Counted from the stretch's first letter, positions 7,255-40,390 are shown. The stretch is 64,000 nt of DNA from Desulfobacterales bacterium (GCA_026984935.1 JALSRD010000035.1:32000-95999), one strand, 5' to 3'. The notes: generated by a model not told the origin, from the sequence alone. A program made the numbers and translations.

Positions 7255-7501
7255 GGGATTGCCTCTTTTGTGATCAGGCCGAACTTTCCACCTGCATTCC
7301 GGCCCCAAACCTGCTTAATTTTTACACGACTGCTCCAGATCCGCAATCTTCGTGCTAAAATATTTCGCACATGCCGCTGCCGGGAATCTGTCCAGATACT
7401 AAATCCAGGGCGGACATATTCCCCCTATCATACCGAGATCGTATAGACAATTTGGATTTCCGGCTTTTGGGAAGCCCCGGATCCGGGTCCAGTCTCGGCA
7501 A

Positions 7502-7612: not shown

Positions 7613-7885
7613 ATGGACTTTCAACAATACTACCTCGACCTGTTCGAAATGCTGAATTCTACCTGCAAAAAGATAGCCTCCGGCAATTATGCTGAAGTCG
7701 ACGCTGACAAATTGTTTGAACTGGCCAAGAAAAACCGCTACCCCTCATTTCTTTCGGATCTGGCTGAATCCTTTGGCATGATGTTGGTCAAAGTGGAAGC
7801 CAGGGAATTTCGCATGCAGCAACTGATTGAAAACCTGGAAAAGGCGAAAAAGGAACTCGAAAAGTGCCTGACAGACCCCAGCTGA
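7613..7885 (+). CDS. small coiled-coil protein of unknown function (90 aa)
   Basis: It is the first ORF after the sigma-54 promoter. The C-terminal half is a heptad-like helix (EAREFRMQQLIENLEKAKKELEKCL). No family recognised. Coding status is supported by its position and by overlap-coupling to the next gene. Confidence 0.55.
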   Translation: MDFQQYYLDLFEMLNSTCKKIASGNYAEVDADKLFELAKKNRYPSFLSDLAESFGMMLVKVEAREFRMQQLIENLEKAKKELEKCLTDPS

Positions 7886-8739
7886 AAAACCGATCGGGAA
7901 CCGGCTATACCCGAAAACCGAGGAAGAGTAGGGTTTTAAAGGCAGCATCGTGGCTCGCTGTCATCATCGTAATGTCGATAGCTTCGGTTGCTTTACAGGC
8001 CCTGGCCGCGGAAGTCTGCCGGGACGGCTTCCGTCAGGACCTGGAATTCTGGGAAGAAGTCATCCGCCTGGACCCGGAAGACGACCGCGCCTACCGCCGG
8101 CGGGGAACGTCCCATCGCAGGATGGGGCACTATGAACGTGCCCTGAAAGATTACACACGCGCCATCGAGCGCAATCCCCGCTCCGCGGAAAGCTACTTCG
8201 TACGCGGCATGACCTACAAGCTTCTGGGCCGCTACCGGAAGGCCCTTGCCGAGTACAACCGGGCCATCCGCCTCAACCCCGAGGACGCCCGGTTTTACCG
8301 CCAGCGCGGTGTGGTCTACAAGAACATGGGCAAATACCGCTTGGCGATCAAAGACTACAACCGGGCCATCGAACTCAATCCCTACTATGCGCGGGCGTAT
8401 GACAACCGCGGCGCCGCCCGAAAAAAACTCAAGGCCTACACCCAGGCCATCGAGGATTACGATCGGGCCATCCGCCTCAACCCCGAAGTCGCCAGGTTTT
8501 ACGTGCACCGCGGCGTGGCATTCAAAAATCTGGGGAAATATCCGCAGGCCATTTCCGAGTTCAACCGGGCCCTGGAACTCAAGCCGGACCTGGCATCGGC
8601 CTACGGCCATCGGGGGAGGGTTTATATTCAACTCGGCCATTCCGATGCGGCCTGCCGGGATTTCTTAAAAGCACGCCAATTGGGCGATGACAGCTTCTGG
8701 CAGTGGGCGCTGCAGAAAAAGCGCTGCGCCGCTCCATGA
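7864..8739 (+). CDS. TPR-repeat protein with N-terminal signal/anchor
   Basis: Seven consecutive 34-aa TPR units (e.g. AYRRRGTSHRRMGHYERALKDYTRAIERNPRSAE; ARFYRQRGVVYKNMGKYRLAIKDYNRAIELNPYYA). There is a hydrophobic N-terminal stretch WLAVIIVMSIASVALQALAAE. The start is uncertain: GTG 7864 or ATG 7972. Confidence 0.85.
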   Translation: MPDRPQLKNRSGTGYTRKPRKSRVLKAASWLAVIIVMSIASVALQALAAEVCRDGFRQDLEFWEEVIRLDPEDDRAYRRRGTSHRRMGHYERALKDYTRAIERNPRSAESYFVRGMTYKLLGRYRKALAEYNRAIRLNPEDARFYRQRGVVYKNMGKYRLAIKDYNRAIELNPYYARAYDNRGAARKKLKAYTQAIEDYDRAIRLNPEVARFYVHRGVAFKNLGKYPQAISEFNRALELKPDLASAYGHRGRVYIQLGHSDAACRDFLKARQLGDDSFWQWALQKKRCAAP

Positions 8740-8758
8740 CTCCGGAAAGGGAAAACGC

Positions 8759-9535
8759 ATGCAGCCAGGATACACGTTACAGGTCTGCGCTCAAACAGAC
8801 ATCGGTTTGAAGCGCACGTGCAATGAGGACAGCTATTTTATTTCCGATCGCAATTTAGCACAAATCGGCATCGACAATAAGCATGCCGTATTCGCCGTGG
8901 CCGACGGCATGGGCGGCCACGCCGGCGGTGATGTCGCCAGTCAGATGGCGGTGCGCGAACTTGCCGGCTGCCATAAAAACGGAAACGGGCCCTCTGAAAG
9001 CGAGGAGGCGGCCTACCTGAAATACATGGAAAAAGTCATCTTCTCCATTCACCGCCGCATCGCGGACTACGGGCAGACCCATCCGGATGTGGAGGGCCTG
9101 GGAACGACACTTTCGGTTCTGGTGCTCACCGGCCGCAAGGCGCTGATGGCCCATGTGGGTGACAGCCGCATTTACCGGCTGCGGGAAGGGCGGTTGGAGC
9201 AGATGACCCGTGACCATACCCTGGTGGGGCAGTTTGTTGAGGCCGGTGTGATGACCGTCGAGGAGGCCGGTGCACACCCGTTGCGCCACGTCATGATGCA
9301 AGCCGTAGGGCACGGCATCGAGCATGTGTTCACGCGCATGGAGGACCTGCACGCCCAGGACCTGTTCCTGCTGTGCAGCGATGGATTGCACGAGGCCGTG
9401 CCGCAAAGTGAAATTATGGAAACCATGCTTGCCGGGGCCGGGCACGGCCATATCTGCCGCGATCTGGTCGCAAAAGCGCTGCAGCACGGTGGCCCTGACA
9501 ATATCACCGTTGTAGCCGTCCGGGCAGCGTGCTGA
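8759..9535 (+). CDS. PP2C-family Ser/Thr protein phosphatase (Stp-like)
   Basis: MQPGYTLQVCAQTDIGLKRTCNEDSY…FAVADGMGGHAGGDVAS…LMAHVGDSRIYR…LLCSDGL…GGPDNITVVAV: these are the canonical PPM motifs. Confidence 0.93.
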   Translation: MQPGYTLQVCAQTDIGLKRTCNEDSYFISDRNLAQIGIDNKHAVFAVADGMGGHAGGDVASQMAVRELAGCHKNGNGPSESEEAAYLKYMEKVIFSIHRRIADYGQTHPDVEGLGTTLSVLVLTGRKALMAHVGDSRIYRLREGRLEQMTRDHTLVGQFVEAGVMTVEEAGAHPLRHVMMQAVGHGIEHVFTRMEDLHAQDLFLLCSDGLHEAVPQSEIMETMLAGAGHGHICRDLVAKALQHGGPDNITVVAVRAAC

Positions 9536-9549
9536 AAGGCGTAAAGATC

Positions 9550-11517
9550 ATGCCGGAAACCGAGACCACAAGCTTCAAACCGGGAACCGTGCTCAACGAC
9601 AAATGGGTCGTCCTGGAATTTATCGCCAAAGGCGGCATGGGGGAAATATACCGGGCGCATCAGCTCAACCTGAATCGCGACGTGGTCATCAAGGTGGTTT
9701 CATCGGAATGGCTGGCGTCCTGCGAAGACGACGAGGAGGAGCTGACCAACGGATTGCAGCGTTTCCGCAATGAAGTCCAGGCCATGGCCCAGATCCGACA
9801 CCCCAACATCGTCCAGGTCTACGATTACGGGTCGCTGGCCGCCGATAAGAGCCGCCGCAACATTCCCTTAGAGTACATCGCCATGGAGTATATCCCCGGC
9901 AGCACCCTGCGGGCCACCATGAGCGAAGAGGGTTTTTACCCGGAAGAGGACGAAGCCCGGCGGTGGCTGCAGCGCTACTTTCTGCCTTTGCTCGACGGCG
10001 TCGAGGCCATGCACCGGGCCGGCATGATCCACCGGGATCTCAAACCGGAAAACGTCCTCATGGACGGCCAAACCCCTAAAATCGTCGATTTCGGGCTGGC
10101 TCGCTCCTGCAGACTGAAATCCGTCACGCAGTCCATCGATGTCAAGGGAACCCCTCCCTATATGTCTCCGGAGCAGTTCTTCGATTTCGGCAGGGTGGAT
10201 CAGCGGGCGGACATCTATTCCCTTGGCAAAATCCTCTATGAATCCATCGACGGGAAAATGACCAACAAGGTCAAGCCGTTTAACAGCATCCACCTGTCCA
10301 ATCCATCTACGCCCTTTTTCAAGGCACTCGACGACATCATCCGCAAAGCCACGGCGGAAGACATCGAAAAGCGCTTTGAAACGGTGGCGCCGCTGAGGCA
10401 ATCGCTGCGCCATGCCATCGGGCAGGCCGAGCCAAACCGCTCCGCAGACCCGACCCCGGTAGACCCGGGGGCGCACCCTCCGCAGCCGGACCGCAACGCC
10501 CGCCTGAAATCGACAATCCGGATGGGTCTGGCCGCAGCCGCCGTCCTGGGTGTCTTGTTTTTTTTCTGGGTTAGGGGCCATGTTCCGGCACAACGCCCGG
10601 CCGAAACCGTCGTCGGACCGCAGGGCCCAATCGCCGACCGGCAGCCCGCGCTTCCCTCACGCGCGACAAAAAGCCCCGCAGGCACCACCGGCTCCCTGCC
10701 CGCATCGATCCGCGCCGAAGACGGCATGCTGCTGCATATCGTCCGCGGCGGCCCCCTGACCTTTCCGCGCGGATGGGTGTCCGCCGGCAAAAAAACAACG
10801 GTACATTCCTTTTTCATGGACGAGACGCCGGTGACCAACCACCAGTATGTGGAATTTTTAAATCAATTGCTTTTGTATATCCAGGTGAAGGGTGCGGTGG
10901 TAAGAAGCGGAAACCGCATCCTGCTGCTGCTCGGTGAAGTCATGGAGGGATACGAGCCGATCCTGTTCAAAAACGGAAAGTTTCGCTTAAACAGCCCCAA
11001 ATACGCCGCCAGTCCGGTACTGCGGGTGACGGCCTACGGGGCATCGGCTTTTGCCCGCTTCTACGGACGGCGCCTGCCCACGGCAACCGAATGGCTGTAC
11101 GCCATCCAAAAAGGCTCGCCCGCTCCGGCTGCCGGCCCTCAAACCCCGCAGGAACAGCCAAAGTCCGCCACCGGCATGGCACGGATGATGGCCAACCAGG
11201 CGGACGGCAAGGCGATTTCGCCATCGCCCCTCGCCAAAGCGGAACTACCGAAAAAAAACATGTCGGTTTTGATGCTGAAGGCCAACGCCCTGGGTATCCG
11301 CGGACTGAACAGCGGGCTGGGCGAATGGGGGCTGCGCATCATACGGGAGGGAACCGAAGGGGGGAAGGAGCGCCTGGAATACGTCGTCCTGGGTGCTTTC
11401 GACAACAGCCCCCGGTCACCGGTAAAGGGCCCGGCGCTGGTCACGCGCCACCCTTGGGAAGCCTTTGAAGAGGTCGGATTCCGCACCGTGATCGGCGTCG
11501 GCAGCGGGAACGGATGA
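9550..11517 (+). CDS. Ser/Thr protein kinase with TM segment and C-terminal FGE-sulfatase (SUMF1)-like domain
   Basis: Hanks kinase motifs are present: GKGGMGEIYRA, VVIKV, HRDLKPENVLM, DFGLA, GTPPYMSPE. TM helix LAAAAVLGVLFFFWV. The C-terminal region has FFMDETPVTNHQYVEFL…RLPTATEWLYA…GEWG…EEVGFRTV, typical of the formylglycine-generating-enzyme fold. Confidence 0.9.
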   Translation: MPETETTSFKPGTVLNDKWVVLEFIAKGGMGEIYRAHQLNLNRDVVIKVVSSEWLASCEDDEEELTNGLQRFRNEVQAMAQIRHPNIVQVYDYGSLAADKSRRNIPLEYIAMEYIPGSTLRATMSEEGFYPEEDEARRWLQRYFLPLLDGVEAMHRAGMIHRDLKPENVLMDGQTPKIVDFGLARSCRLKSVTQSIDVKGTPPYMSPEQFFDFGRVDQRADIYSLGKILYESIDGKMTNKVKPFNSIHLSNPSTPFFKALDDIIRKATAEDIEKRFETVAPLRQSLRHAIGQAEPNRSADPTPVDPGAHPPQPDRNARLKSTIRMGLAAAAVLGVLFFFWVRGHVPAQRPAETVVGPQGPIADRQPALPSRATKSPAGTTGSLPASIRAEDGMLLHIVRGGPLTFPRGWVSAGKKTTVHSFFMDETPVTNHQYVEFLNQLLLYIQVKGAVVRSGNRILLLLGEVMEGYEPILFKNGKFRLNSPKYAASPVLRVTAYGASAFARFYGRRLPTATEWLYAIQKGSPAPAAGPQTPQEQPKSATGMARMMANQADGKAISPSPLAKAELPKKNMSVLMLKANALGIRGLNSGLGEWGLRIIREGTEGGKERLEYVVLGAFDNSPRSPVKGPALVTRHPWEAFEEVGFRTVIGVGSGNG

Positions 11518-11595: not shown

Positions 11596-11622
11596 TTGAC
11601 ATTTATCGGCCGGGCATAATAT
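11596..11622 (+). promoter_or_regulatory. possible sigma-70-type promoter for the glycan cluster
   Basis: TTGACA (11596-11601), a 15-nt spacer, then TAATAT (11617-11622), about 100 nt upstream of ATG 11721. The spacer is shorter than optimal. Confidence 0.3.
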
Positions 11623-11720
11623 CCTTTGTAAAAAAGAGCATTTTCGAAAGGACATGGAAATCCTTCGCCGGCAGCTTCAAGACTGCCCATACAGGCGGGA
11701 TTCCCAACGAAAAAATCAAA

Positions 11721-12680
11721 ATGGCACGTTCCGACGTCCACCCCGTACACCGCTTCGAGCCCTGGCAGGTTTTCCCGGGATCCTACCGCAACCCGCCCCC
11801 GGACGGAAACTTTCCCGCCGCGCCGCGGCAGGCGCCGGCCATTTCGCCGGACACCCCGATCGCCTCCATGGGGTCCTGCTTTGCGCGCGAAATCCGTAAA
11901 ATCCTGCTGGCAAAGGGCTACGCCTACATCACCGAAGAAACCCATCACCCGGCCGCGGTGCACGCCAGCGCCGCCTGGGAGCGCGTCTACAACACCTTCT
12001 GCCTGCGCCAGATCTTCGAGTACACCTTTGGAACCTGGCGGCCGGCGCTGCGCTGGTGGCACACACCGCAAAGCGGCCGCATCCAGGACCCTTACCGCCG
12101 CATCATCCTCTACGACGACCTGCAGGCGGCCGAAGCCGATTTCACCCGCCACAGAATCTGCTCGCGGCGCGCCCTGGAGCGCGCCGAGGTGCTGATTCTG
12201 ACGCTGGGCCTGACCGAAATCTGGCAGGACCGCGAAGACGGCGCCGTGATCTGCCTGCCGTCGGGCCCCTACGTCAGCGAGGGCGGCGACATGACGCGCT
12301 ACCGCTTCCGGGTCAGCCGATACAATGAAAACCTGGACAATCTGGAACGTATCCACGCCATCCTGGCGCGCCACAACCCGGCCTGCCGCCTGCTGATCAC
12401 GGTTTCCCCGGTGCACCTGTGGGCCACCTTCCGCCGCGATGCCGATGTGATCAGCGCGTCGTGCAACTCCAAGTCCACGCTGCGGGCGGCCGCCGATGAA
12501 TTCTGCACGCGCCACGACAACGCGCATTACTTTCCGGCCTTTGAAATGGCCACCATCTACCAGCCGCTGACCGGCCGCAGCTGGTTTTCCGAAGGCAAGG
12601 AAAATTTTCACGTCAATTCAGACTGTGTCGATTTCATCATGCGCCATTTTTTCCGCTTCTACAGCCCGCCGGCCTGCTGA
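11721..12680 (+). CDS. GSCFA-domain protein (putative SGNH-like esterase/acyl-hydrolase)
   Basis: It contains the eponymous motif …TPIASMGSCFAREIRKIL… near the N-terminus, and later LTLGLTEIW and VSPVHL blocks. The family is uncharacterised. Confidence 0.8.
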   Translation: MARSDVHPVHRFEPWQVFPGSYRNPPPDGNFPAAPRQAPAISPDTPIASMGSCFAREIRKILLAKGYAYITEETHHPAAVHASAAWERVYNTFCLRQIFEYTFGTWRPALRWWHTPQSGRIQDPYRRIILYDDLQAAEADFTRHRICSRRALERAEVLILTLGLTEIWQDREDGAVICLPSGPYVSEGGDMTRYRFRVSRYNENLDNLERIHAILARHNPACRLLITVSPVHLWATFRRDADVISASCNSKSTLRAAADEFCTRHDNAHYFPAFEMATIYQPLTGRSWFSEGKENFHVNSDCVDFIMRHFFRFYSPPAC

Positions 12681-12713
12681 CCGCCCGGGAGTGCACATCT
12701 TCACCTTGACAAA

Positions 12714-13358
12714 ATGCCGGCAACTACATTACTCATACCGCAACGAAAACCCTTACGCCACGGAGATACACCCGAACTTATGTGCTTTGCGTGCGCCACC
12801 ATGTCGCGGCAGGCGCTGGATGCCGCGCTCTCGAAAGCCGTACGCCATCCGCATTCAGACATCGGCAAGGGCAAACTGTACATTTCACCGGAGGCCTATG
12901 CCACGCCGGACCGTGAAACGAACCTGGTCATCAGTCCCTACTGCATCCTGGACTGTACCGGATCGATATCCATCGGACCGTGGTGCAATATCGGGCCGCG
13001 CACGCGCATCTACACGCACGACCACATTCATGCCGGCCGCATTCCCTTGAGCCGGGTGCAGGAGACCTACGGCATCCTGTTCCAGGACAAACGCATCGGC
13101 GCCGACGTCTGGATCCACGACGGGTCACTGGTGCTCTACCAGGTGACGGACATCCCCGACGGCTTCATTCTGGGCGGCGGGTCGGTGCTGACACGCAATC
13201 CCGGTCCCTATGAAATCTGGGCCGGCAATCCCGCCCGCAAAATTGCAACGCGCCGCGATATCAGCCGCCGGGAATACCTCCAACAGGTCTGCGGCGAGCG
13301 TTTTTGGCTCGACGAAGAAGGCCCGGACCCCCGACCCATCGCCGGGGGCAACCCATAA
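12714..13358 (+). CDS. hexapeptide-repeat (LbH) acyl/acetyltransferase
   Basis: Left-handed beta-helix repeats: ISPYCILDCTGSISIGPWCNIGPRTRIY… IGADVWIHDGSLVL… ILGGGSVLTRNPGPYEIWAGNPARKI. The start is uncertain (ATG 12714, 12780 or 12801). Confidence 0.8.
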   Translation: MPATTLLIPQRKPLRHGDTPELMCFACATMSRQALDAALSKAVRHPHSDIGKGKLYISPEAYATPDRETNLVISPYCILDCTGSISIGPWCNIGPRTRIYTHDHIHAGRIPLSRVQETYGILFQDKRIGADVWIHDGSLVLYQVTDIPDGFILGGGSVLTRNPGPYEIWAGNPARKIATRRDISRREYLQQVCGERFWLDEEGPDPRPIAGGNP

Positions 13359-13361
13359 GCC

Positions 13362-14555
13362 ATGGCCCGCCAGGCAACCTACAACATTCTGATGTACTCC
13401 CACGACACCTACGGGCTGGGCCATATCCGCCGCACCATGGCCATTGCCGCCAGTCTCAGGGGGCCGGACGTCAATATTCTGATTCTCACCGGATCGCCCA
13501 TCGCCGGCCGCTTCGCCTTCCCGGAACAGGTCGATTTCGTGCGCATCCCGGGCATGATCAAGAAAACCAACGACGAGTATCTGCCCCTGTCCATCAAGAT
13601 CAACCCCAAACACGCTTTGGACATCCGCAAGAATATCATCACGGCCACTGCCAAGGCCTTTCGGCCGGACCTGTTCATCGTGGACAAGGAGCCGCTGGGA
13701 TTGAAAAAGGAGATTCTGCCGACACTCCAGTGGCTCAAACGCTGCATGCCCAAAAGCCGCACGATCCTGGGCCTGCGTGACGTCATGGACGACGCCGCGG
13801 TCGTGCGCCGCGACTGGCACGAAAAGGGGATCTACCGCACGCTGGACGAACTGTACTCGGAAATCTGGATATACGGTCTTAAGTCCCTGTACGACCCCAT
13901 CCGGGAATACGCCATCCCCGACTGTATCAGCTCCAAGATCCACTTTACCGGCTACATCCCGCGCAAAACCCCGTCAAGAGAAACGCGGCGCAAGACGCGG
14001 CGTGAGCACATGGTCAACGGGAAAGGCAAACTGGTGGTCGTCACCACCGGCGGCGGCGGCGACGGGTACGCCGTCATGGACACCTACCTGGCCATGCTGG
14101 AGCGCACGCCTCTGGCGGTGAACAGCATCCTGGTCACCGGCCCCTTCATGCCCAAGGCGCAGCGCCGCAACCTGTTCCGCCGCGCCCGCCGGCTGAAGAT
14201 CCGCACCTATCACTTCTACCGCCAGATGGAAAAGCTGCTGGCCGCCGCCGACCTGGTCATCAGCATGGGCGGCTACAACACGCTGTGCGAAATCCTCAGC
14301 CAGAAGACCGTTTCGCTGGTCATCCCCCGCGAAGCCCCGCGACGCGAACAGCTCATCCGGGCCCAGGCCATGGCGGGCTGCAACCTGGTGGACTACATTC
14401 CCTGGAGTGAACTCACGCCCGCGCACCTGCAGCAAAAAGTCGATTCCCTGCTCAACGCCCCCCGCCGTTACCTCGCAGCCGTATCGAATTTCCGCCTCAC
14501 CGGACTGGACGTCATGTGCCGCCGGCTGGCGGCTTTCAAAGGCAGGGTATGCTGA
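13362..14555 (+). CDS. glycosyltransferase, GT-B fold (GT28/MGT-like 'predicted glycosyltransferase' type)
   Basis: N-terminus YNILMYSHDTYGLGHIRRTMAIAASL; C-terminal nucleotide-sugar half VVTTGGGGDGY… ISMGGYNTLCEIL. It is a paralogue of the gene at 16446-17615. Confidence 0.8.
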   Translation: MARQATYNILMYSHDTYGLGHIRRTMAIAASLRGPDVNILILTGSPIAGRFAFPEQVDFVRIPGMIKKTNDEYLPLSIKINPKHALDIRKNIITATAKAFRPDLFIVDKEPLGLKKEILPTLQWLKRCMPKSRTILGLRDVMDDAAVVRRDWHEKGIYRTLDELYSEIWIYGLKSLYDPIREYAIPDCISSKIHFTGYIPRKTPSRETRRKTRREHMVNGKGKLVVVTTGGGGDGYAVMDTYLAMLERTPLAVNSILVTGPFMPKAQRRNLFRRARRLKIRTYHFYRQMEKLLAAADLVISMGGYNTLCEILSQKTVSLVIPREAPRREQLIRAQAMAGCNLVDYIPWSELTPAHLQQKVDSLLNAPRRYLAAVSNFRLTGLDVMCRRLAAFKGRVC

Positions 14556-15826
14556 AATCCGGCCGGCGCCCGGTTCTGGGCATGATTCTGAAAGGTTATC
14601 CGCGCATTTCGGAAACCTTCATCTCCAATGAAATCCTGCTGCTGGAGCAGCTGGGGTTTCGCGTGCACATTTTTTCCATGCGCCGGCCGCGGGAAACCTT
14701 CAGCCATGCGAACGTCCGGCGGATCGAAGCCGCGGTCGACTACCTGCCCGAACGCATGCTGCCCAAATTGCCACAGCTGGTCAGAGAAAACCTGCTGCTG
14801 GCCGCACAAGCGCCGTTTCGCTACAGACAGGCGCTGAAAATGGCCTGCACACGCTTTTTGCGCACACGCCGCTCCGCTACCTTAAAGCACCTGCTGCAGG
14901 CCGGTTTTCTGGTGCGCCGCCTGCTGCCCGGCAGCGGCGTTGCGCATCTGCACGCGCATTTCGCCCACTCGCCGACTTCGGTGGCACTGTTTGCCGGCCT
15001 TCTGGGTGGCCTGCCGTTCAGTTTCACGGCCCACGCCAAGGATATCTACACCTCGCACCCGCAGCAACTGGCCGAAAAAATCGCCCGCGCGCGTTTCGTG
15101 GTGACCTGTACACGATACAACCGGCGGTACCTGCAGCGCCTGGCGTCCACCTGCCGCACACCCATCGACTGCGTCTACCACGGCATCGATGTGCGCCGTT
15201 TTTCCGCCGGCACCAGCCCGGTTGCAGGTGCAGCGCGACCCCACAGCCCCTACCGCCTGCTGACCGTGGCGCGCCTGACACCCAAAAAAGGCCTGCCCAC
15301 CGTCTTTAAGACCCTGGCTTGGCTGCGCGCACGCAGCGTGCCTTTCGAGCACGTGCTCATCGGTGACGGCGAAGCACGGGCGGAAACCCTGGGGCATCTC
15401 CGCAGCCTGCAACTGGAATCGGCCGTACGCTGGCTGGGTACCCAGCCCCATGACGTGGTGCTGAAACACTACCGCCGCGCCGACCTCTTCCTGCTGGGAT
15501 GCGAGGTCGCGGCCAACGGTGACCGCGACGGGATTCCCAACGTGCTGTTGGAGAGCATGGCCATGGGTGTGCCGGTGGTCGCCACGCGCGTATCGGCGAT
15601 TCCCGAACTGGTCCAAGACCAAGCCGGCGGCCTGTTGGTCGCACCCCGCAATCCTGCTGAAATGGGCAGCGCCGCGCTGCGCCTGCTCACCGACCACGGC
15701 CTGCGGCAGCGCGTCATCGCCCGCGGACGCCAAAGGGTGCGGCAGCATTTCGACAACCGTTTGCTGATCCGGAACCTGGCGCAGCGCTTCCGGACCGCGC
15801 TGGCGGAAACATGCAGCGTACCATGA
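14549..15826 (+). CDS. glycosyltransferase family 4 (GT-B, WcaL-like)
   Basis: ILKGYPRISETFISNEILLLEQLGF at the N-terminus. C-terminal EX7E-type region: GDRDGIPNVLLESMAMGVPVVATRVSAIPELV. ATG 14549 overlaps the upstream stop (ATGCTGA). ATG 14582 is an alternative start. Confidence 0.88.
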   Translation: MLKSGRRPVLGMILKGYPRISETFISNEILLLEQLGFRVHIFSMRRPRETFSHANVRRIEAAVDYLPERMLPKLPQLVRENLLLAAQAPFRYRQALKMACTRFLRTRRSATLKHLLQAGFLVRRLLPGSGVAHLHAHFAHSPTSVALFAGLLGGLPFSFTAHAKDIYTSHPQQLAEKIARARFVVTCTRYNRRYLQRLASTCRTPIDCVYHGIDVRRFSAGTSPVAGAARPHSPYRLLTVARLTPKKGLPTVFKTLAWLRARSVPFEHVLIGDGEARAETLGHLRSLQLESAVRWLGTQPHDVVLKHYRRADLFLLGCEVAANGDRDGIPNVLLESMAMGVPVVATRVSAIPELVQDQAGGLLVAPRNPAEMGSAALRLLTDHGLRQRVIARGRQRVRQHFDNRLLIRNLAQRFRTALAETCSVP

Positions 15827-16443
15827 GCCAGACAGCCGCCGCCACACAGTTCGGCCTGATCCGGCACGCACCCACCGCCTGGAACCTGGGAAAACGCATC
15901 ATGGGGCAGATGGATCAGGCCCTGGCGCCTGTCGGCGAAGACGCGGCCCGGCGCTGGGGCCGGCGGCTGGCAACTGAAAACTGGGACCGCATCCTTTCCA
16001 GCGACAGCCGCCGGGCAGTGCAGACCGCCGAGCTGGTGAACCTTTCCGTGCGTGCCGAGCTGCACACCGACACGCGGTTGCAGGAGCAGAACTGGGGCCG
16101 ATGGAGCGGCAGACGCCTGTCCGAAATCCGTGCCGGTGCGAAAGACCGGCTCGAGGCCCTCGAACAGACCGGCTGGCGCTTCCGCCCGCCGGGGGGCGAA
16201 GACCGCCGCAGTGTGCAGCGGCGCGCCTTTCGGGCACTGGCGGAGGCTGTTGAACGCTGGCCCGGTGCCCGCATCCTGGTGGTCACCCATGAAGGCGTCA
16301 TCAAGTGCCTGGTCTACCATTTGCGCGGGCGCCGCTTCGTGCCGTCAGAAGCGCCGCTGCTGCTGCCGTACCACCTGCACCGCATCACCGCCGGGGCCGG
16401 CCGGCCCTGGCGGGTTGACGTCAACGCCATAGACCTGAGGTGA
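15811..16443 (+). CDS. histidine phosphatase family protein (phosphoglycerate-mutase-like)
   Basis: FGLIRHAPTAWN (RHG-type catalytic His motif), ILSSDSRRAVQTAEL, VVTHEGVIKCLV. An alternative start, ATG 15823, would give an ATGA overlap with the GT4 stop. Confidence 0.85.
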   Translation: MQRTMSQTAAATQFGLIRHAPTAWNLGKRIMGQMDQALAPVGEDAARRWGRRLATENWDRILSSDSRRAVQTAELVNLSVRAELHTDTRLQEQNWGRWSGRRLSEIRAGAKDRLEALEQTGWRFRPPGGEDRRSVQRRAFRALAEAVERWPGARILVVTHEGVIKCLVYHLRGRRFVPSEAPLLLPYHLHRITAGAGRPWRVDVNAIDLR

Positions 16444-16445
16444 CC

Positions 16446-17615
16446 ATGAAAATTGCCGCCTACTGTCAGTACGTGCTCGGTATCGGTCATTTTTTCAGAA
16501 TCCTGGAGATCTGCCGCGCACTGGCGGACCACGACGTTCTGCTGATTACCGGCGGCCCGCCGGTGGACGCCCATCTGCCGAAGCATGTACGCCATGTTCC
16601 GCTGACCAGCCTGAAGATGGACAAACAATTCACACGGCTTCTGGCCCTGGAGCCGGGACAGGATGTGGAACAGATCAAATCCCGGCGGTGCCGGCGGCTG
16701 CTGGACATTTTCCGTACGGAAAAGCCGGACGTTCTGCTCATCGAACTGTACCCTTTCGGCCGGCGCGCCTTTTCTTTCGAAATCATTCCCCTCCTGGAAA
16801 TGCTCCACAGCCGGCCGCACGACCGCTGCAGCGTCGTCTGCAGCCTGCGCGACATCCTGGTGGAAAAAAACGACCCGCAGACCTACGAGGCGCGTGCCAT
16901 CCGCATTTTAAAGCGTTTTTTCGACGCCCTGCTGGTCCACGGCGACCCAAACGTAATCCGCCTGGACGCGACCTTTGCGCGCACCGCCGACATTCCCGTG
17001 CCGCTGGTCTACACCGGCTACGTGGCGCCGGCCGTGCCGGAAGGCGCGCGCCGACGCCTGCGCGCCGAACTGGGCCTGGCCGCAGATGAAAAGCTGGTGG
17101 TCGCCAGCGCCGGCGGCGGGCGTATCGGCGGGCAGCTGCTGTCGGCCGCCGTTGCGGCCATGAACTTTCTCGAACACCCCTCCGGCTGCCGCCTGCAGCT
17201 GTTTACCGGGCCGTTCGGCAAGGACAGCGCCATCGCAGATCTGAAACGGCGCGCCGCTAAAAACGTGCACATCGCGCGCTTTACCACCGATTTCCTCTCC
17301 TGCCTGGCCGCCGCCGACCTGTCTCTCAGCCTGGGCGGCTACAACACCTGCATGAACATACTGGCCTCCGGTGTACCGGCGCTGGTGTGGCCTTCACCGC
17401 AGGACCGTGAGCAGGGCCTGCGCGTTGAGCGACTGGCGGAACTGGGCGCCATGCAGCGGCTGACGCAGGCCGATCTCGATCCGCGGCGCCTGGCCGTCAG
17501 GATGCAGCCCCTGCTGCAGCAGGCGGAACGTACGCACATTGCCATCGACATGCAGGGTGCCGCGGCCACCGCACGCTGGCTGGCAGCGCACGCCGACGGC
17601 CGCAGGAGGCTGTAG
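16446..17615 (+). CDS. glycosyltransferase, GT-B fold (paralogue of 13362-14555)
   Basis: MKIAAYCQYVLGIGHFFRILEICRALA… VASAGGGRIGG… LSLGGYNTCMNILA. A GAGGTGA RBS precedes it, and GTG 16440 overlapping the upstream stop is also possible. Confidence 0.8.
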   Translation: MKIAAYCQYVLGIGHFFRILEICRALADHDVLLITGGPPVDAHLPKHVRHVPLTSLKMDKQFTRLLALEPGQDVEQIKSRRCRRLLDIFRTEKPDVLLIELYPFGRRAFSFEIIPLLEMLHSRPHDRCSVVCSLRDILVEKNDPQTYEARAIRILKRFFDALLVHGDPNVIRLDATFARTADIPVPLVYTGYVAPAVPEGARRRLRAELGLAADEKLVVASAGGGRIGGQLLSAAVAAMNFLEHPSGCRLQLFTGPFGKDSAIADLKRRAAKNVHIARFTTDFLSCLAAADLSLSLGGYNTCMNILASGVPALVWPSPQDREQGLRVERLAELGAMQRLTQADLDPRRLAVRMQPLLQQAERTHIAIDMQGAAATARWLAAHADGRRRL

Positions 17616-18410
17616 GTGCCCGCCGGCTGCCATGTTTTATGGCGCAAGGCGCCGCACAAGACGCTCGCGGCCCTTGTTCACGACAGCCTGGCGCATATTC
17701 CCGCCGGTACTGGGGTGCGCGTTTTCTTCCGCGCCGACGACATCGGCGTCCCCTCGCGGTCCTTCTCCCGGCTGCTCGCGATCTTCAGCAGGCAGCAGGC
17801 GCCGCTGGCACTGGCCGTGGTGCCGGCGTGGCTCACGCAGCCGCGCTGGCGCTTTCTGTTGCGCGCAAGCACCGGCAACCGGCGCCGCTGGTGCTGGCAC
17901 CAGCACGGCTGGCGGCACGTCAACCACGAAAAACGGGGCAAAAAGCAGGAGTTCGGCCCGGCGCGTACGCCGGCAATGCTGGAGGCCGATCTTCTGCGCG
18001 GCAGAAAACGCCTGCAGGCGCTGATGGGCGACCGGTTTACCCCCATTTTCACGCCACCCTGGAACCGCTGCAGCCGCGAGGCCCTGGCGCTGCTGAAGGC
18101 GCACGGCTACCTGGCCGTTTCCCGCGATGCCGGCGCGCGCGCAACCGGGCCGTTAGGACCGCCGGACATCGCCGTGAATGTGGACCTGCACACCCGTTGT
18201 GAAAGCGACGCGCAAGACGCCGCAAGGGGCCTGGCCGCGGAGCTGCGTTATGCCTTTGCCCGCGGCACCTGCGGCATCATGATCCATCACCGGCGCATGA
18301 ATGCCGCCGCCCTCGAATTTCTGGCGCTTCTGGTCGGAACCCTGGCGGCCCACCCGCGGGTGCACCTGGTGGACATGCGCGATCTTGCCGACCGCAGCCG
18401 GTCGCCGTAA
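17616..18410 (+). CDS. CE4/NodB-like polysaccharide deacetylase family protein (divergent)
   Basis: GTG start immediately follows the upstream TAG. VRVFFRADDIG resembles the (T)FDDG Asp-Asp motif. WHQHGWRHVNHE contains an HxxxH metal motif. The family assignment is tentative. Confidence 0.55.
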   Translation: MPAGCHVLWRKAPHKTLAALVHDSLAHIPAGTGVRVFFRADDIGVPSRSFSRLLAIFSRQQAPLALAVVPAWLTQPRWRFLLRASTGNRRRWCWHQHGWRHVNHEKRGKKQEFGPARTPAMLEADLLRGRKRLQALMGDRFTPIFTPPWNRCSREALALLKAHGYLAVSRDAGARATGPLGPPDIAVNVDLHTRCESDAQDAARGLAAELRYAFARGTCGIMIHHRRMNAAALEFLALLVGTLAAHPRVHLVDMRDLADRSRSP

Positions 18411-18438
18411 TTTTCGCCGACAGCCGGCAACTGTGTGG

Positions 18439-18467
18439 TTGCACTTTGCACATTTCTGCCCTATATT
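18439..18467 (+). promoter_or_regulatory. sigma-70-type promoter upstream of arnB
   Basis: TTGCAC (18439-18444), an exact 17-nt spacer, then TATATT (18462-18467). It lies in the only sizeable gap (147 bp) of the cluster, about 90 nt upstream of ATG 18557. Confidence 0.5.
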
Positions 18468-18556
18468 ACGGCACCGCCGGCCGAGCCTGAAAGGCATATT
18501 GCACGGCTCGACGGCAACCTTTTTATGAAGCCTTGCGACACCCGGCGAAACAGGTC

Positions 18557-19708
18557 ATGCGAAAAGAGTTTTTGCCTTTTTCACGCCCTTCCATCACCGA
18601 GGCGGACATTGCCGCCGTGGCGGACGTGCTGCGTTCGGGATGGATCACCAGCGGGCCGCAAAACGCCGCCTTCGAGGAGCAATTTTGCCGCTACGTGGGC
18701 AGCAAAAGCGCGGTGGCGCTTTCCTCGGCCACGGCCGGCATGCACCTGGCGCTGATGGCCGCCGGTATCGGGCCGGGTGACGAGGTCATCACGCCCTCCA
18801 TGACCTGGGTCTCCACCGTCAACCTGATCACCTTGTGCGGTGCCCGTCCCGTTTTCGCCGATATTGAGCGCGACACATTGATGATCAGCGCACGGACCGT
18901 CCAAGACCTGATTTCCGCCCGCACGCGCCTCATCATCCCGGTACACTTTGCCGGCGCGCCGGTGGACATGCACCCGCTGCGCCGTCTGGCCGAACGCCAC
19001 GGCATCGCGATCATCGAAGACGCGGCCCACGCCGCCGGCAGCGCCTACCGCGGCGACCTTGTGGGTGCACATGGCACGGCCATCTTCTCGTTTCATCCCA
19101 TCAAGAACCTGACATGCGCCGAGGGCGGCATGCTGTGCAGCGATGACCCCGCCTTCTGCGAACGTATCCGCAGCCTCAGATTCCACGGACTGGGGGTGGA
19201 CGCCTACGACCGGCGCCGGCAAGGGCGCTCGCCCCAGGCCGAGGTGCAGGAGCCGGGCTTCAAATACAACCTGCCGGACGTGCTGGCCGCCCTCGGCCTG
19301 CAGCAGCTGCACCGCCTGGACGCACTCAACGCCCGGCGTGCACAGCTGGCGGCGCTTTACCGCGAACAGCTGGCGGACATTGATGAAATCCGCCCGCTGG
19401 CCGTTCCCGGCTATCCCCACCGGCACGCCTGGCATCTGTTCGTCATCCGCCTGGACATCGAACGCGCCGGCATGGACCGTGACGCATTCATGCAGGCGCT
19501 CAAAGACCGCAACATCGGCAGCGGCATTCACTTCCGTGCCGTTCACCGGCAGAAGTACTACCGTGAAACGCTGAAGCCGGCGCCGGACCACCTGCCGCAC
19601 ACCGAATGGAATTCGGAGCGTATCTGCTCACTGCCCCTGTTTCCGGATATGCACGCCGAAGACGTGGCCGACGTAACCGCAGCCATCAAGGACATCCTGG
19701 CATCATGA
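18557..19708 (+). CDS. arnB: UDP-4-amino-4-deoxy-L-arabinose--oxoglutarate aminotransferase
   Basis: [43 protein letters not shown]… closely parallels E. coli ArnB (FLPFSRPAMG…SGWITTGPKN). It is a DegT/DnrJ/EryC1 fold with the PLP Lys region FSFHPIKN. Confidence 0.93.
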
Positions 19709-20694
19709 ACACTCCCGGCCTGGTTTCCATCGTCATCCCGGTTTTCAACGAAGCCGAAAACCTGGACGAACTGGTAAACCGCTGCCTGGCTGCCTGCCGC
19801 CGGATGCAGCGTCCCTTCGAAATCATCCTGGTGGATGACGGCAGCAGCGACGGCTCCGATGCACGCATCGAACAGGCGGCCGGCACGCACCCCGAAGTGA
19901 TCGGTGTATTTTTGAACCGCAACTACGGCCAGCACGCGGCGGTTATGGCGGGCTTCGACCAGTGCGCGGGAGAAATCGTCGTCACGCTGGATGCCGATCT
20001 GCAGAATCCGCCCGAGGAGATCCCGCGCCTGGTGGATCACATGCAGGAGGGCATCGACGTGGTGGGCAGCGTGCGCGCCCACCGCCAGGACAGGCTCTCG
20101 CGCCGCCTGGCCTCGGCGCTCATCAACCGCGCCGTGCAGAAATCCACCGGCGTCATGATGCACGACTACGGCTGCATGCTGCGCGCCTACCGGCGGCACA
20201 TCGTCGATGCCATGCGCAGCTGCCACGAGCGCAGCACCTTCATCCCCATCCTGGCCAACAGCTTCGCGCGGGGCACCACGGAGATCGAAGTGCGCCACGA
20301 AGCCCGCCGCAAGGGAAGCTCCAAGTACGGCCTCATCAAACTGCTCTCGCTGCTCTTCGACCTGCTGACGTCCATGACCACGGCCCCTTTGCGGCTGCTG
20401 GGAATCACAGGGGCCGTGGTTTCCGTGGCCGGCATCGGCTTTGGCCTGCTGCTGCTGCTGATGCGCCTCATCTTCGGTGCCCAGTGGGCGGCCGAAGGCG
20501 TGTTCACCCTGTTTGCCATTCTGTTTATCTTCGTGGGCGCCCAGTTCATCGGCATGGGACTGCTGGGCGAATACATCGGCCGCATCTACCACGACGTGCG
20601 CGGCCGGCCGCGCTACTTCGTGCTCAAGGTGCTGGGCAATGAGCGCCGCGACCGGCCGGCAGCTCCCGAAAACCACCCGCCGCCATCGAAATAG
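19705..20694 (+). CDS. arnC: undecaprenyl-phosphate 4-deoxy-4-formamido-L-arabinose transferase
   Basis: Near-colinear with E. coli ArnC: [10 protein letters not shown]…[14 protein letters not shown]…[17 protein letters not shown]…[17 protein letters not shown]…[11 protein letters not shown]…[18 protein letters not shown]. Its ATGA overlaps the arnB stop. Confidence 0.96.
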
Positions 20695-20714
20695 ATCGGA
20701 ATAGAAAGGAATCC

Positions 20715-22766
20715 ATGAAGACCATTGTACTGGCCTACCACAACATCGGCTGCATCGGCATCCGGGCGCTGATCAAACACGGCTTCGAGATCGCCGCCGT
20801 TTTTACCCACGCCGACCAGCCGGGAGAGCGGATCTGGTTCGATTCGGTGGCCGAGCTGGCCGCCGACCACGACATCCCGGTCTTTGCCCCCGAGAGCATC
20901 AACCATCCCCTGTGGGTTGCCCGCATCCGGGAAATGCAGCCCGAAATCCTCTTTTCCTTCTACTACCGCAACATGGTGGGTGCCGAGGTGCTGGGCATCC
21001 CGCCGCGCGGCGCCCTGAACCTGCACGGCTCCCTGCTGCCACGCTACCGCGGACGCTGCCCCATCAACTGGGTGCTGATCAACGGAGAGCACGAAACCGG
21101 GGTCAGCCTGCACCACATGGTGCTCAAACCAGATGCCGGCGACATCGTCGCCCAGCAAAAAATCCCCATCGACGCCGACGATACGGCGCTTTCCCTGCAC
21201 GCCAAGGCGGCTGCCGCCAGTGCGCAGCTGCTCGATACGATCCTGCCGCATATCAAGAGCGGCACCGCCCCGCGCATCCCCCAGGATGCATCCCGGGCCA
21301 CCTACTTCGGCGGCCGCAGCGCCGCCGACGGGGAAATCGACTGGCAGCAGCCCGCGGCGGCGATCTACAACCTGGCGCGCGCGGTCACCCACCCCTACCC
21401 GGGCGCTTTCAGCTACATGGGCCGCCGCAAGTGCATTTTCTGGAAACTCACGCCCGTAGCCCACGGCCACGGACAGCCGGGAACCGTGCTTTCGACCGAC
21501 CCGCTGAAAATTGCCTGCGCCGACGGCGCCCTGCAGGTCGAAAGTGCCCAGGTCGCAGGCGGCATCCCCGTCAGCGGCAGCCAGCTGGTCAGCGAAATGG
21601 GGCTGGCCGCAGGTATGCGCTTTACCAAACAGTTGCGCGACGCGCCTGCCGGCGTGTGCAAAAAGCACGTGCTCATCCTGGGGGTGGACGGCTTCATCGG
21701 CAGCCACCTGAGCGAGCGCCTGCTGGATTCGGGGAAATACGAAGTCCACGGCATGGACCTGGACCGGCACTCCCTGGACGGCCTGCTGGACCGCCCCGGT
21801 TTTCACTTCAGCGAGGGAGACATCTCCATCCACCGCGAGTGGATCGAATACCACGTCCGCAAGTGCGATATCGTGATCCCGCTGGTGGCCATCGCCACTC
21901 CCATCGAATACGTGCGCAACCCGCTGCGCGTCTTCGAACTCGACTTCGAAGAGAACCTGCGCATCGTGCGCTACTGCGCCAAGTACGGCAAACGCATCCT
22001 GTTTCCCTCCACTTCGGAAGTCTACGGCATGTGCGAGGACCCCCTGTTCGACGAGGACCGCTCGCGCCTGGTGCTGGGCCCCATCCGCAAGCAGCGCTGG
22101 ATATACTCCTGCTGCAAACAGCTGCTCGACCGGGTCATCTGGGCATACGGCAGCAAGCAGGGGCTGCGGTTTACCCTGTTTCGGCCCTTCAACTGGATCG
22201 GCCCGCGGTTAGACAGCCTGGCCTCGGCGCGCATCGGCAGTTCACGCGCCATCACCCAGCTGATCCTCAACCTCACCGAAGGCATGCCCATTCAGCTGGT
22301 CGACGGCGGCAGCCAGAAGCGCTGCTTCACGGATGTCGAAGACGGAGTGGAATGCCTCTTTCGCATCATCGAAAACAAAGACGGCTGCTGCGACGGACGT
22401 ATCTTCAACATCGGCAGCCCGGACAACGAAGCCAGTATCGCCCAGCTGGCCGACATGTTGATCGAAAAATTCCAGGCCCATCCGCTACGCGCAAAATTCC
22501 CGCCCTTAGCCGGCCTGCACCGGGTGGAAAGCCGCACTTTTTACGGCAGCGGATACGAGGATGTGCATCACCGCAAGCCGAGCATCGAGAACGCACGCCG
22601 TTTTCTCAACTGGACCCCGCGGATCAGTCTGGCGGAATCCGTGGAGAAGACCCTGGACTTTTTCCTGCGCGAAGCTGTGCAGTCCTGCGCGTTCGACCCC
22701 AGCCTGCCGGCCGCGCCGGCTACGGAAGATGCCACCCGCCCCGACATGGCGGAAGGTGCCGGGTGA
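20715..22766 (+). CDS. arnA: bifunctional UDP-L-Ara4N formyltransferase / UDP-glucuronate C-4'' decarboxylase
   Basis: 683 aa. The N-terminal formyltransferase has [19 protein letters not shown]. The C-terminal SDR decarboxylase has [14 protein letters not shown]… and [10 protein letters not shown] (YxxxK). Domain order is the same as E. coli ArnA. Confidence 0.96.
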
Positions 22767-23659
22767 AAGTCGGGCTGCGCATCGACGTCGACACCCTGCG
22801 GGGCACGCGCCGGGGCGTACCGGCCCTGCTGCAGCTGCTTGAAACGCTGGGAGTGCGCGCCAGCTTCTTTTTCTGCGTGGGTCCGGACAACATGGGGCGC
22901 AACGCTTTGCGCCTGCTGCGGCCGGACTTCCTCAAGAAAATGCGGCGCACGCACGCCGCCGGCCTGTACGGCTGGGACATTCTGCTCAAGGGCACGCTGG
23001 GCCCCGGCCCCAACATTGCACACCACGCCGGCAGCGTTATCGGCCAGACCGCCGCCAGGGGGCATGAAATCGGCCTGCACGCCTGGGACCACTGGGCCTG
23101 GCAGGCACGCATCGAACGTATGACACCGGCGGCCGTGCGGCGCAGCCTGGAAAAAGGCGTCGTACGGCTCCGGCAACTGACCGGCAGGAGGCCCGTGTGC
23201 TCCGCGGCGCCGGCCTGGAAGTGCACCGACCGGGTACTGCGCGAAAAAAACCGTTTCGCCTTTGCCTACAACAGCGACTGCCGCGGGCACAGCATCTTTT
23301 ACCCGCGTGCGGGCCGCGAAATACTCCCCCAACCACAGATTCCCGTAACCCTTCCGACTTACGATGAAGTCGTGGGCCGAGAAGGCGTCACGGCGGCGGA
23401 TTTCAACACCTATCTGTTCAGGTGCCTGCGGCCGGGAGCGCTCAACGTGCTGACCATTCACGCCGAAGTCGAAGGCATCGCCTGCCTGAAGCTGTTCGCC
23501 GGTTTTGCCCGCCGCGCCAGGGCCAGGGGAGTTACGCTGACGCCGCTGGGCGAACTGCTGGGCGATACGCGCCGCATCGCGCCCGCGGCCATCGTCACCG
23601 CCGAGACACCCGGCCGCCAGGGGTGGCTTTCGCTGCAGGAAGGAACCCATCCGGCATGA
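22763..23659 (+). CDS. arnD: 4-deoxy-4-formamido-L-arabinose-phosphoundecaprenol deformylase
   Basis: GTG 22763 overlaps the arnA stop (GTGA). [23 protein letters not shown]…[12 protein letters not shown]…LYGWDILL…[11 protein letters not shown]…[11 protein letters not shown]…TIHAEVEG closely parallels E. coli ArnD. Confidence 0.95.
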
Positions 23660-25311: not shown

Positions 25312-25432
25312 GACCGGAGCCGGTGCCGATTTACACCGGCGGCGCTTTGTGCTACACAATAGTTCGGAAGCCCGCAGGCGCCGTTTAAGCGGCATATTCC
25401 GGCGTCCGGAACACCAACTAATAGAGGGGCCC

Positions 25433-26116: not shown

Positions 26117-26175
26117 TGACGGTTGATTTCAAGGGTTCGGAGTGAAGCGCTAAAAACCAGACGATAGTCCAAGCC

Positions 26176-26913: not shown

Positions 26914-27025
26914 ACAATACCCCGCTCTGACACCTGCTGCACGTGCGCCCCGCCGGCGGTATCATCAATTGCAGACGGTTTTTTTATATTTCACTTTCGG
27001 CTTAAAATGTAAAATTGCTACCCAT

Positions 27026-33952: not shown

Positions 33953-34006
33953 AATCCAGAGTCCCCGACGCGGCGCAAATGTAAATTCAACACACGGACC
34001 GCATAG

Positions 34007-35974: not shown

Positions 35975-35983
35975 GGAGCAACC

Positions 35984-36598: not shown

Positions 36599-36636
36599 TC
36601 TCCTTGCAGGGCACGGGCATCGGCTGAGCGAATCCT

Positions 36637-37879: not shown

Positions 37880-37882
37880 GAG

Positions 37883-38530: not shown

Positions 38531-38537
38531 AATGTGC

Positions 38538-39428: not shown

Positions 39429-39479
39429 TTCAGGGCCTCCGTACTCCGTATCCCGAACCTGACGGTCTGTGCCGCCGAT

Positions 39480-40365: not shown

Positions 40366-40390
40366 CGCCACCACTTTCCCGGAAACGAGT

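Follow-up and report, generated by a model that had tools for sequence, protein, structure and literature searches.

Here, we describe seven co-directional genes, located at 11721 to 18410 on the plus strand of a 64,000-nucleotide stretch of DNA from a Desulfobacterales bacterium (GCA_026984935.1, JALSRD010000035.1:32000-95999; hereafter, the window), whose proteins probably assemble and tailor, in the cytoplasm, the product of a conserved glycan or glycolipid system that is coupled to ATP-binding cassette (ABC) exporters and is not derived from the adjoining arn operon. In order, the genes encode a GSCFA-family protein, a hexapeptide protein, the glycosyltransferase GT28A, a GT4 glycosyltransferase, a His_Phos_1 phosphatase, the GT28A paralog GT28B, and a CE4-like protein, and arnBCADT comes next. 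A preliminary description of the window had described these genes as fused head-to-tail to the arn operon and had proposed an additional decoration of lipid A or core, or of a lipid-linked glycan. Its gene layout was confirmed by open reading frame (ORF) listing and translation. The seven ORFs touch or overlap, the GT28A stop at 14555 lying beyond the GT4 start at 14549, the GT4 stop at 15826 beyond the phosphatase start at 15811, and the phosphatase stop at 16443 meeting the GT28B start at 16440 (or 16446), while the GT28B stop at 17615 abuts the CE4-like start at 17616. Gene content and domain calls hold as well, including the relation of GSCFA to SGNH proteins (PMC9487903) and the assignment of the deacetylase to CE4 by fold and motifs. 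We retain the idea that the predicted product is an uncharacterized glycoconjugate; the proposed tie to arn was not borne out.

Conservation of the cluster and its relation to the arn operon

A GT28A profile scan of species-representative genomes detected relatives in 566 genomes, of which the best 80 loci were analyzed. Apart from a few mislabeled bins, these loci are all annotated as Desulfobacterales or deltaproteobacterial metagenome-assembled genomes (MAGs), and the close relatives of the window, which itself comes from a metagenomic contig of 236 kb, are all Desulfobacterales MAGs. Forty-one loci with at least 8 kb of downstream sequence were informative for the genes that follow GT28A. 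GT4 was present in all 41, a second GT4 gene (GT4') in 30, the phosphatase in 27, GT28B in 24, the CE4-like gene in 14, and FtsX with a LolD-like ATPase in 18; arn genes followed in a single locus, L006, with 79% identity of GT28A. GT28A is invariably paired with the WcaL-like GT4, and the pair is commonly extended by GT4', the phosphatase, GT28B, and the CE4-fold deacetylase. GT4' is gone from the window, and the nearest relatives (L007 and L008) carry it between GT4 and the phosphatase. As this synteny is kept across many genomes, the clustering is far beyond chance, and the comparison of related genomes finds the cluster conserved without arn.

The reverse comparison covered the 80 closest metagenomic arnA loci (64 to 72% identity). 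All of them carry arnB, arnC, arnD, or arnT as far as the contigs reach. A cluster gene was found upstream of the operon in 0 of 33 informative loci, and FtsX or M28-FtsX genes downstream of it in 0 of 23. In the GT28A loci, by contrast, a trio of FtsX, ATPase, and M28-FtsX genes comes right after the glycosyltransferase genes in 19 of the 24 loci of the long type. In L005 and others, the deacetylase gene is followed by a short FtsX gene, a LolD/MacB-type ATPase gene, and a gene for an M28-peptidase/FtsX protein of about 1650 amino acids, and in L038 the trio is inverted and located upstream, still adjacent to the cluster. Because the trio following the deacetylase gene in relatives is the one that follows arnT in the window, arnBCADT sits within an otherwise conserved arrangement. 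The best reading is that arn is a separate unit, inserted in a lineage-specific manner between the deacetylase and FtsX genes, and that the glycosyltransferase system is not of arn origin. In short-type loci, ABC ATPase matches of about 33% identity lie downstream of GT4'; these are part of an unrelated NMT1/UbiA transporter and were set aside.

The arn operon itself (arnB-arnC-arnA-arnD-arnT; 18557 to 25311, plus strand) is well defined. ArnA, with 1068 bits, exceeded its cut-off of 777, and the remaining proteins were sub-cut-off yet the best full-length matches (ArnB, 617/631; ArnC, 487/529; ArnD, 363/382; ArnT, 489/567). In the region 23656 to 25433, the operon ends at arnT, and no arnE or arnF flippase genes precede the FtsX gene. 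The CE4-like stop and the arnB start are 146 nucleotides apart. This spacer contains a candidate promoter, TTGCAC-17 nt-TATATT (18439 to 18467, plus strand), whose hexamers and 17-nucleotide spacing are kept in L006, where the spacer is otherwise divergent and some 300 nucleotides longer. Overlapping the CE4-like stop is a hairpin, CGACCG-CAGC-CGGTCG followed by a T-rich run (18389 to 18404, plus strand), which is a weak terminator candidate in a region where terminator-like matches do not exceed the shuffled expectation. Direct or inverted repeats that might flank arn as insertion scars were sought, and none was convincing.

These observations bear on the possibility that the seven genes extend the arn pathway by an extra decoration of lipid A, core, or undecaprenyl-linked 4-amino-4-deoxy-arabinose (Ara4N), with the phosphatase removing a lipid A or sugar phosphate. 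The short distance to arnB on the same strand, the arrangement common to one other species, and the lack of arnE/F in the operon speak for it, and the CE4-like structural model resembles ArnD among other enzymes (8t0j, rank 35). There is also a precedent in enterobacteria, where Ais/PmrG, a His_Phos_1 phosphatase of the lipopolysaccharide (LPS) core, is encoded beside arn. Ais, however, is periplasmic. The window phosphatase has neither a signal peptide nor a transmembrane segment and so, in contrast to Ais/PmrG or LpxE/F, cannot reach lipid A in the periplasm. Similarity of the CE4-like protein to ArnD is confined to 30% identity over 61 amino acids, and the arn genes are related to the seven genes at the superfamily level at most. 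Moreover, the two units do not co-occur in a conserved manner, their promoters appear to be separate as judged from the candidate element and hairpin in the spacer, and alphaproteobacterial versions of the cluster (see below) have exporters and no arn. The conserved partners of the cluster are ABC export systems and not arn, and a role in lipid A or core decoration is not supported. We therefore consider an extension of the arn pathway improbable, conceivable solely as a local association in this lineage.

Upstream of the cluster, a promoter-like site, TTGACA-18-TATCCT (11596 to 11625, plus strand; 10/12 match), lies in the 204-nucleotide gap between a Ser/Thr kinase gene and the GSCFA gene; as its position is not conserved in L006, it is weak evidence. 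Directly 5' of the cluster (7613 to 11517, plus strand) lies a string of overlapping genes, which starts with a small ORF and continues with genes for a membrane protein with TPR repeats, a phosphatase of the PP2C type, and a Ser/Thr kinase-FGE-sulfatase fusion. The TPR, PP2C, and Ser/Thr kinase-FGE genes were rejected as cluster members, being present in 0 of the 58 loci with an upstream flank. The G+C content is 63 to 69% over 14000 to 24000, which spans the glycosyltransferase cluster and arn, compared to 55 to 60% in most other parts of the window. Rfam and tRNA scans of the whole window gave no matches.

Exporters linked to the cluster in Desulfobacterales and beyond

In the window, the trio downstream of arnT (25433 to 31903, plus strand) comprises, by domain profiles, an FtsX-only permease of 227 amino acids, a LolD/MacB-type ATPase of 245 amino acids, and an M28-peptidase/FtsX membrane protein of 1678 amino acids. 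It represents an unusual type-VII-like ABC set, in whose largest protein an M28 peptidase domain is joined to an FtsX domain at the C terminus. Across the order, the ATPase shows 80 to 85% identity. The genes that follow on the same strand (31913 to 38530) encode a DUF6785/DUF6784 protein, a polytopic protein of 655 amino acids, proteins of 204 and 288 amino acids, a PqqD-like protein, and an O-methyltransferase. A second export system lies on the minus strand. It is an ABC exporter of 888 amino acids (40893 to 43559; probably 838 amino acids, with a start near 43409) containing ABC_membrane and ABC_tran domains, the latter, its nucleotide-binding domain (NBD), being split by an insert of about 250 amino acids. 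The next gene (40391 to 40966) encodes a cyclic nucleotide monophosphate (cNMP)-binding protein and, together with genes for STAS and RsbW-like HATPase_c_2 proteins, occupies 39480 to 40966 downstream of the exporter gene.

The same order recurs on three independent contigs (L171 to L173), where M28-FtsX, DUF6785, 655-amino-acid, 204-amino-acid, 288-amino-acid, and PqqD-like genes are closed on the opposite strand by STAS, HATPase_c_2, cNMP protein, and exporter genes. L171 is contiguous with the glycosyltransferase cluster of L056 on one contig, from which arn is absent. This conserved block places the seven genes at the end of a supercluster that spans about 32 kb (11.7 to 43.6 kb) and is interrupted by arn. 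The split-NBD exporter is about 70% identical across Desulfobacterales, as is GT28A.

Versions of the cluster outside this order provide a second line of evidence. A tblastn search of plasmids and chromids with GT28A returned 275 records, mostly from Rhizobium and Sinorhizobium, and GT28A is 34 to 43% identical in alphaproteobacterial and Escherichia plasmids. Sulfitobacter dubius carries genes for a sugar dehydrogenase, a GT28-like enzyme, two successive GT4 enzymes, a histidine phosphatase, a second GT28-like enzyme, a polysaccharide deacetylase, and an ABC exporter of 1034 amino acids, which reproduces the core order of the window; the approximately 150 additional C-terminal residues of this exporter may be a cNMP-binding domain. 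In Rhizobium johnstonii (pRL11), Shinella, and S. meliloti (pSymB), GT28A, GT4, and GT28B (33 to 39% identity to the window proteins) are followed by an exporter of about 900 amino acids, the third glycosyltransferase being the GT28B ortholog (33 to 35% identity). The gene after the exporter encodes a cNMP-binding protein in Rhizobium and Shinella and a Crp/Fnr-family regulator in S. meliloti. Across the alphaproteobacterial versions, the adjoining exporters span 840 to 1030 amino acids. The window exporter aligns end-to-end with that of Rhizobium (28% identity over 833 amino acids, E = 3e-98) and is likewise a full-length homolog of those located beside the glycosyltransferase genes in Sulfitobacter, Shinella, and S. 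meliloti; its cNMP-binding neighbor is homologous to the corresponding pRL11 protein (E = 6e-14).

The neighborhoods of these loci differ in accessory genes. A sugar dehydrogenase gene is located nearby in Rhizobium, Shinella, and S. meliloti, an adenylate cyclase gene in Rhizobium and S. meliloti, and methyltransferase genes in Shinella and S. meliloti; a polysaccharide lyase and a nucleotide-sugar dehydrogenase were noted in the S. meliloti version. Plasmid pla1 of Escherichia sp. KS167_9B (L089, 173 to 183 kb) encodes a GT28-GT4-GT4 series, an ABC exporter, two APH-like kinases, an alginate-export porin, and a sugar dehydrogenase. It is an IncF plasmid on which K88-type fimbrial genes and the gene for an S6 autotransporter adjoin the glycosyltransferase locus, and we regard the locus as a candidate plasmid-borne surface polysaccharide locus. 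In the Sulfitobacter, Rhizobium, Sinorhizobium, Shinella, and Escherichia plasmid loci examined, arn was absent beside the cluster. Two classes of ABC exporter are conserved neighbors of the cluster across two phyla, and some variants add accessories of acidic polysaccharides, namely dehydrogenase, lyase, and porin.

The neighboring block, with its PqqD-like recognition element and M28 peptidase-FtsX protein, raises the possibility that the transferases modify a peptide or protein encoded there, giving rise to an exported glycosylated peptide. A PqqD-like gene belongs to the conserved block, a radical SAM/SPASM gene adjoins the exporter gene in L173, and the folds nearest to GT28A are those of natural-product GT1 enzymes. 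The alphaproteobacterial and Escherichia versions nevertheless combine glycosyltransferases and exporter with none of the peptide-related genes, which is the main objection, and no precursor peptide was identified. A glycopeptide as the product thus appears very unlikely.

Some further features of this region deserve mention. The 655-amino-acid polytopic protein (34007 to 35974, plus strand) had no Pfam, NCBIfam, or PDB match and, with 83 to 88% identity in other Desulfobacterales, is the most conserved protein of the block; a PDB sequence search with the DUF6785 protein gave nothing specific. A HAMP-SpoIIE (RsbU-like) phosphatase gene (5365 to 7308, minus strand) and the RsbW-like kinase and STAS genes (39480 to 40443, minus strand) bracket the supercluster, and L171 has a SpoIIE fragment near the exporter gene; this bracketing suggests partner-switching control. 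A 519-amino-acid ORF (38532 to 40091, plus strand) overlaps the genuine minus-strand genes for ZnuA, STAS, and HATPase_c_2 proteins and is almost certainly spurious. The Opp-like importer of the window (52.2 to 58.3 kb) was considered as a match of the importer beside the rhizobial clusters and rejected, its similarity being at the family level only.

Predicted enzymes of the cluster

Neither signal peptides nor transmembrane segments were detected in any of the seven proteins, and all seven enzymes are soluble and cytoplasmic. The three glycosyltransferases form the backbone of the cluster. GT28A (13362 to 14555, plus strand), the conserved core gene product, and its paralog GT28B (16440 to 17615, plus strand) share 28% identity and carry the Glyco_tran_28_C domain of GT-B enzymes (51 and 46 bits). 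GT28A has more than 7700 homologs. Neither protein qualifies as MurG (TIGR01133 scores of 33 and 29 bits; cut-off, 250), with which they have only the GT-B fold and a GT28 domain at the C terminus in common. The AlphaFold2 model of GT28A shows a generic GT1/MurG-type GT-B fold, and its Foldseek matches do not discriminate between functions; a PDB sequence search with GT28A gave nothing specific. The WcaL/EpsE-like GT4 (14549 to 15826, plus strand) is a general member of this family (Glycos_transf_1, 96 to 98 bits), and its scores against the equivalog profiles for EpsE (NF041876, 182 against 400) and WcaL (TIGR04005, 117 against 538) do not place it in either. Its best PDB matches were PimB', BshA, and MshA, and an SPS-like protein was also similar.

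The phosphatase (15811 to 16443, plus strand) is a cytoplasmic member of histidine phosphatase branch 1 (PF00300, 151 bits), with the catalytic motif IRHAPT at residues 17 to 22 and an N terminus that is not hydrophobic. Its best PDB match was PhoE (3e-21), followed by mycobacterial glucosyl-3-phosphoglycerate phosphatase (2e-13) and CobC, and it reached no equivalog cut-off (CobC, 114 against 163). Assignment as an Ais/PmrG-type heptose(II)-phosphate phosphatase was rejected, since that enzyme is periplasmic and the window protein has no signal peptide.

The last gene (17616 to 18410, plus strand) is predicted to encode a cytoplasmic, DUF2334-like deacetylase of the CE4 fold. The protein is narrowly sub-threshold in Pfam (Polysacc_deac_1, PF01522, 21.7 against 23.1; DUF2334, 20.1 against 26), and many of its homologs carry PF01522 and/or PF10096 in precomputed annotation. 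Its AlphaFold2 model has a predicted local distance difference test (pLDDT) score of 84.8, and the PDB structures matched by Foldseek are almost all CE4 esterases or deacetylases (E = 7e-7 downwards). In an alignment of 35 homologs, D41, D42, H95, H97, H101, H104, R117, D190, H192, and H225 are invariant, and the motifs RADD, HQHGWRH, TPPWNR, and IHH are invariant or nearly so. As judged from the model and the alignment, the protein has the CE4 (beta/alpha) barrel fold together with the Asp-Asp and His-x3-His metal/catalytic motifs. Lectin matches in a PDB sequence search, which was otherwise unspecific, were dismissed as noise.

Two further proteins, a GSCFA protein and a hexapeptide protein resembling acetyltransferases, are frequent accessories of the glycosyltransferase cluster. 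The GSCFA gene adjoins GT28A in 29 of the 58 loci with an upstream flank, mostly in divergent orientation, and the hexapeptide gene was found in 9 of the 58. GSCFA (11721 to 12680, plus strand; 319 amino acids) is a putative esterase or acyl/acetyltransferase of the SGNH clan, scoring 158 bits against PF08885 (cut-off, 25) and displaying the MGSCFA motif in its translation. The start at 11721 (M70 of the long ORF), given in the preliminary description, is favored over the gene callers' 11514, as 15 of 43 homolog alignments begin exactly there and the start context ATG-GCN-CGN-TCC-GA is kept in L006. The GSCFA family is related to SGNH proteins, and its function is not known (PMC9487903); a PDB sequence search found no relative. 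The profile searches thus uphold both the GSCFA assignment and, with the help of fold and motifs, that of the deacetylase. The hexapeptide ORF opens at 12714 and probably starts at 12780 (12780 to 13358, plus strand). Its product resembles left-handed beta-helix (LbH) O-acetyltransferases. It had no Pfam match above threshold (Hexapep, 18.6 against 27), NCBIfam models of Vat, CatB, WbbJ, and maltose acetyltransferase matched at E values of about 1e-9 to 1e-6, all sub-cut-off, and residues 62 to 201 matched xenobiotic and maltose acetyltransferases in PDB at 9e-9 to 1e-5 (6pu9, 9e-9; CatB8; maltose O-acetyltransferase).

With every enzyme soluble, BshA and MshA among the nearest solved relatives of GT4, and a glucosyl-3-phosphoglycerate phosphatase as the second-best solved relative of the phosphatase, the cluster might make a glycoside that stays soluble in the cytoplasm, for instance a compatible solute or a glucosamine-based thiol or cofactor, by the logic of MshA/MshA2/MshB or GpgS/GpgP. 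The GpgS/GpgP, MshA/MshA2, and SPS/SPP systems indeed share with the window a GT-B gene beside a phosphatase gene. Their products are small and soluble, made by one or two transferases and not exported, whereas the cluster has three to four glycosyltransferases, more than a typical solute pathway, along with predicted acyl-tailoring enzymes. The main objection is the consistent adjacency of exporters, to which the polysaccharide lyase and the alginate-export porin of the variants may be added. Furthermore, in the thiol pathways known so far, deacetylation is carried out by LmbE-family proteins and not by CE4 enzymes. We hold a soluble glycoside to be unlikely.

A proposed exporter-coupled pathway and its significance

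How might an exporter-coupled glycan or glycolipid system of this kind operate? The peripheral GT-B enzymes would build an oligo- or polysaccharide, possibly lipid-anchored, from nucleotide sugars at the cytoplasmic face of the membrane. One transfer may use or yield a phosphorylated intermediate that is cleared by the phosphatase, as in GpgS/GpgP or MshA/MshA2. The CE4 enzyme might N-deacetylate an N-acetylhexosamine residue in the cytoplasm prior to export, like NodB and ArnD, and the LbH enzyme and the SGNH protein could add or edit acyl or acetyl groups. The split-NBD exporter, with its cNMP-binding partner, would then carry the product across the inner membrane, and the complex of FtsX, LolD-like ATPase, and M28-FtsX protein might handle it in the envelope. 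arnBCADT, under its own promoter, would have been placed between the deacetylase and FtsX genes in the lineage of the window only. The order of the enzymatic steps in this scheme is purely conjectural.

In its logic, this scheme comes closest to Nod-factor synthesis and to ABC-dependent polysaccharide pathways, and we claim membership in neither. Nod factors are lipo-chitooligosaccharides made by the NodC/NodB/NodA/NodL/NodS/NodIJ pathway. The proposed scheme is alike in that the oligosaccharide is assembled in the cytoplasm, a CE4 enzyme (NodB) removes N-acetyl groups there, a methyltransferase is encoded nearby, and the product leaves through an ABC exporter; the hexapeptide protein may correspond to the LbH O-acetyltransferase NodL. 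Unlike that pathway, the window has GT-B backbone enzymes (GT28-like and GT4) instead of the GT2 enzyme NodC, lacks NodA, possesses a histidine phosphatase and an SGNH protein, and employs another type of ABC exporter; no proteins are orthologous. With Wzm/Wzt-dependent O-antigens, KpsMT-dependent capsules, and the Vi antigen, the cluster would share full cytoplasmic assembly by soluble or peripheral glycosyltransferases prior to ABC export; a sugar dehydrogenase, a lyase, and an outer membrane porin are additions seen in the variants from alphaproteobacteria and Escherichia. Its transporters differ, being a fused ABC_membrane and ABC_tran half-transporter with a split NBD and a cNMP partner, or an FtsX type with a LolD-like ATPase. 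Wzm/Wzt- or KpsMT-type export was rejected, as no ABC-2 permease with a separate ATPase was among the exporters found, and a WecA/WbaP-type initiating enzyme is absent from the window cluster. To the arnBCADTEF pathway with Ais/PmrG, the resemblance is limited to its position as a neighbor in the window, to ArnD as a cytoplasmic CE4 enzyme acting on a lipid-linked sugar, and to a His_Phos_1 gene beside arn.

Several observations weigh against an exporter-coupled system separate from arn. The adjacency of arn is kept in two species, so that a local functional benefit is conceivable. L019 and L041 have GT28A, GT4, and GT4' with no exporter within 10 kb, and the split-NBD exporter of Desulfobacterales is located 15 to 22 kb away from the cluster, not adjacent, on the three contigs and the window in which this was checked. 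Genes for an initiating phosphoglycosyl transferase, a flippase, or a polymerase are missing from the cluster. Literature searches on GSCFA, COG4671, DUF6785, Mlr3248, and pRL11 locus tags found no characterized cluster member or product.

Hints at a biological role come from Rhizobium johnstonii 3841, in which the adjoining sugar dehydrogenase gene, pRL110056, scores as required in nodules and root colonization, and for which its authors assumed a role in O-antigen (bioRxiv 10.1101/2020.05.07.082560; PMC11103875). In view of these fitness phenotypes, found solely for this adjacent dehydrogenase, the product of the cluster may matter for surface biology.

No new lipid A modification is revealed by our analysis, and the case illustrates how functional inference can go astray when it relies on genes lying head to tail in a single genome. 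What emerges is an uncharacterized but widespread system, of moderate interest and no surprise in kind: a highly conserved gene set, apparently characterized by nobody, that is found in sulfate reducers as well as in plant symbionts and is linked to regulated export. More tentatively, it is tempting to speculate that GT28A, GT4, and GT28B, the split-NBD exporter, and the cNMP-binding protein constitute an unrecognized, cyclic-nucleotide-gated pathway for the export of a partly de-N-acetylated, acylated oligosaccharide or glycolipid, common to Desulfobacterales, where it would be part of an envelope supercluster of roughly 30 kb that also encodes a giant M28-FtsX protein, and to rhizobia, roseobacters, and some Escherichia plasmids. 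If this were true, the pathway would yield a new class of glycoconjugate that serves in the envelope or in signaling.

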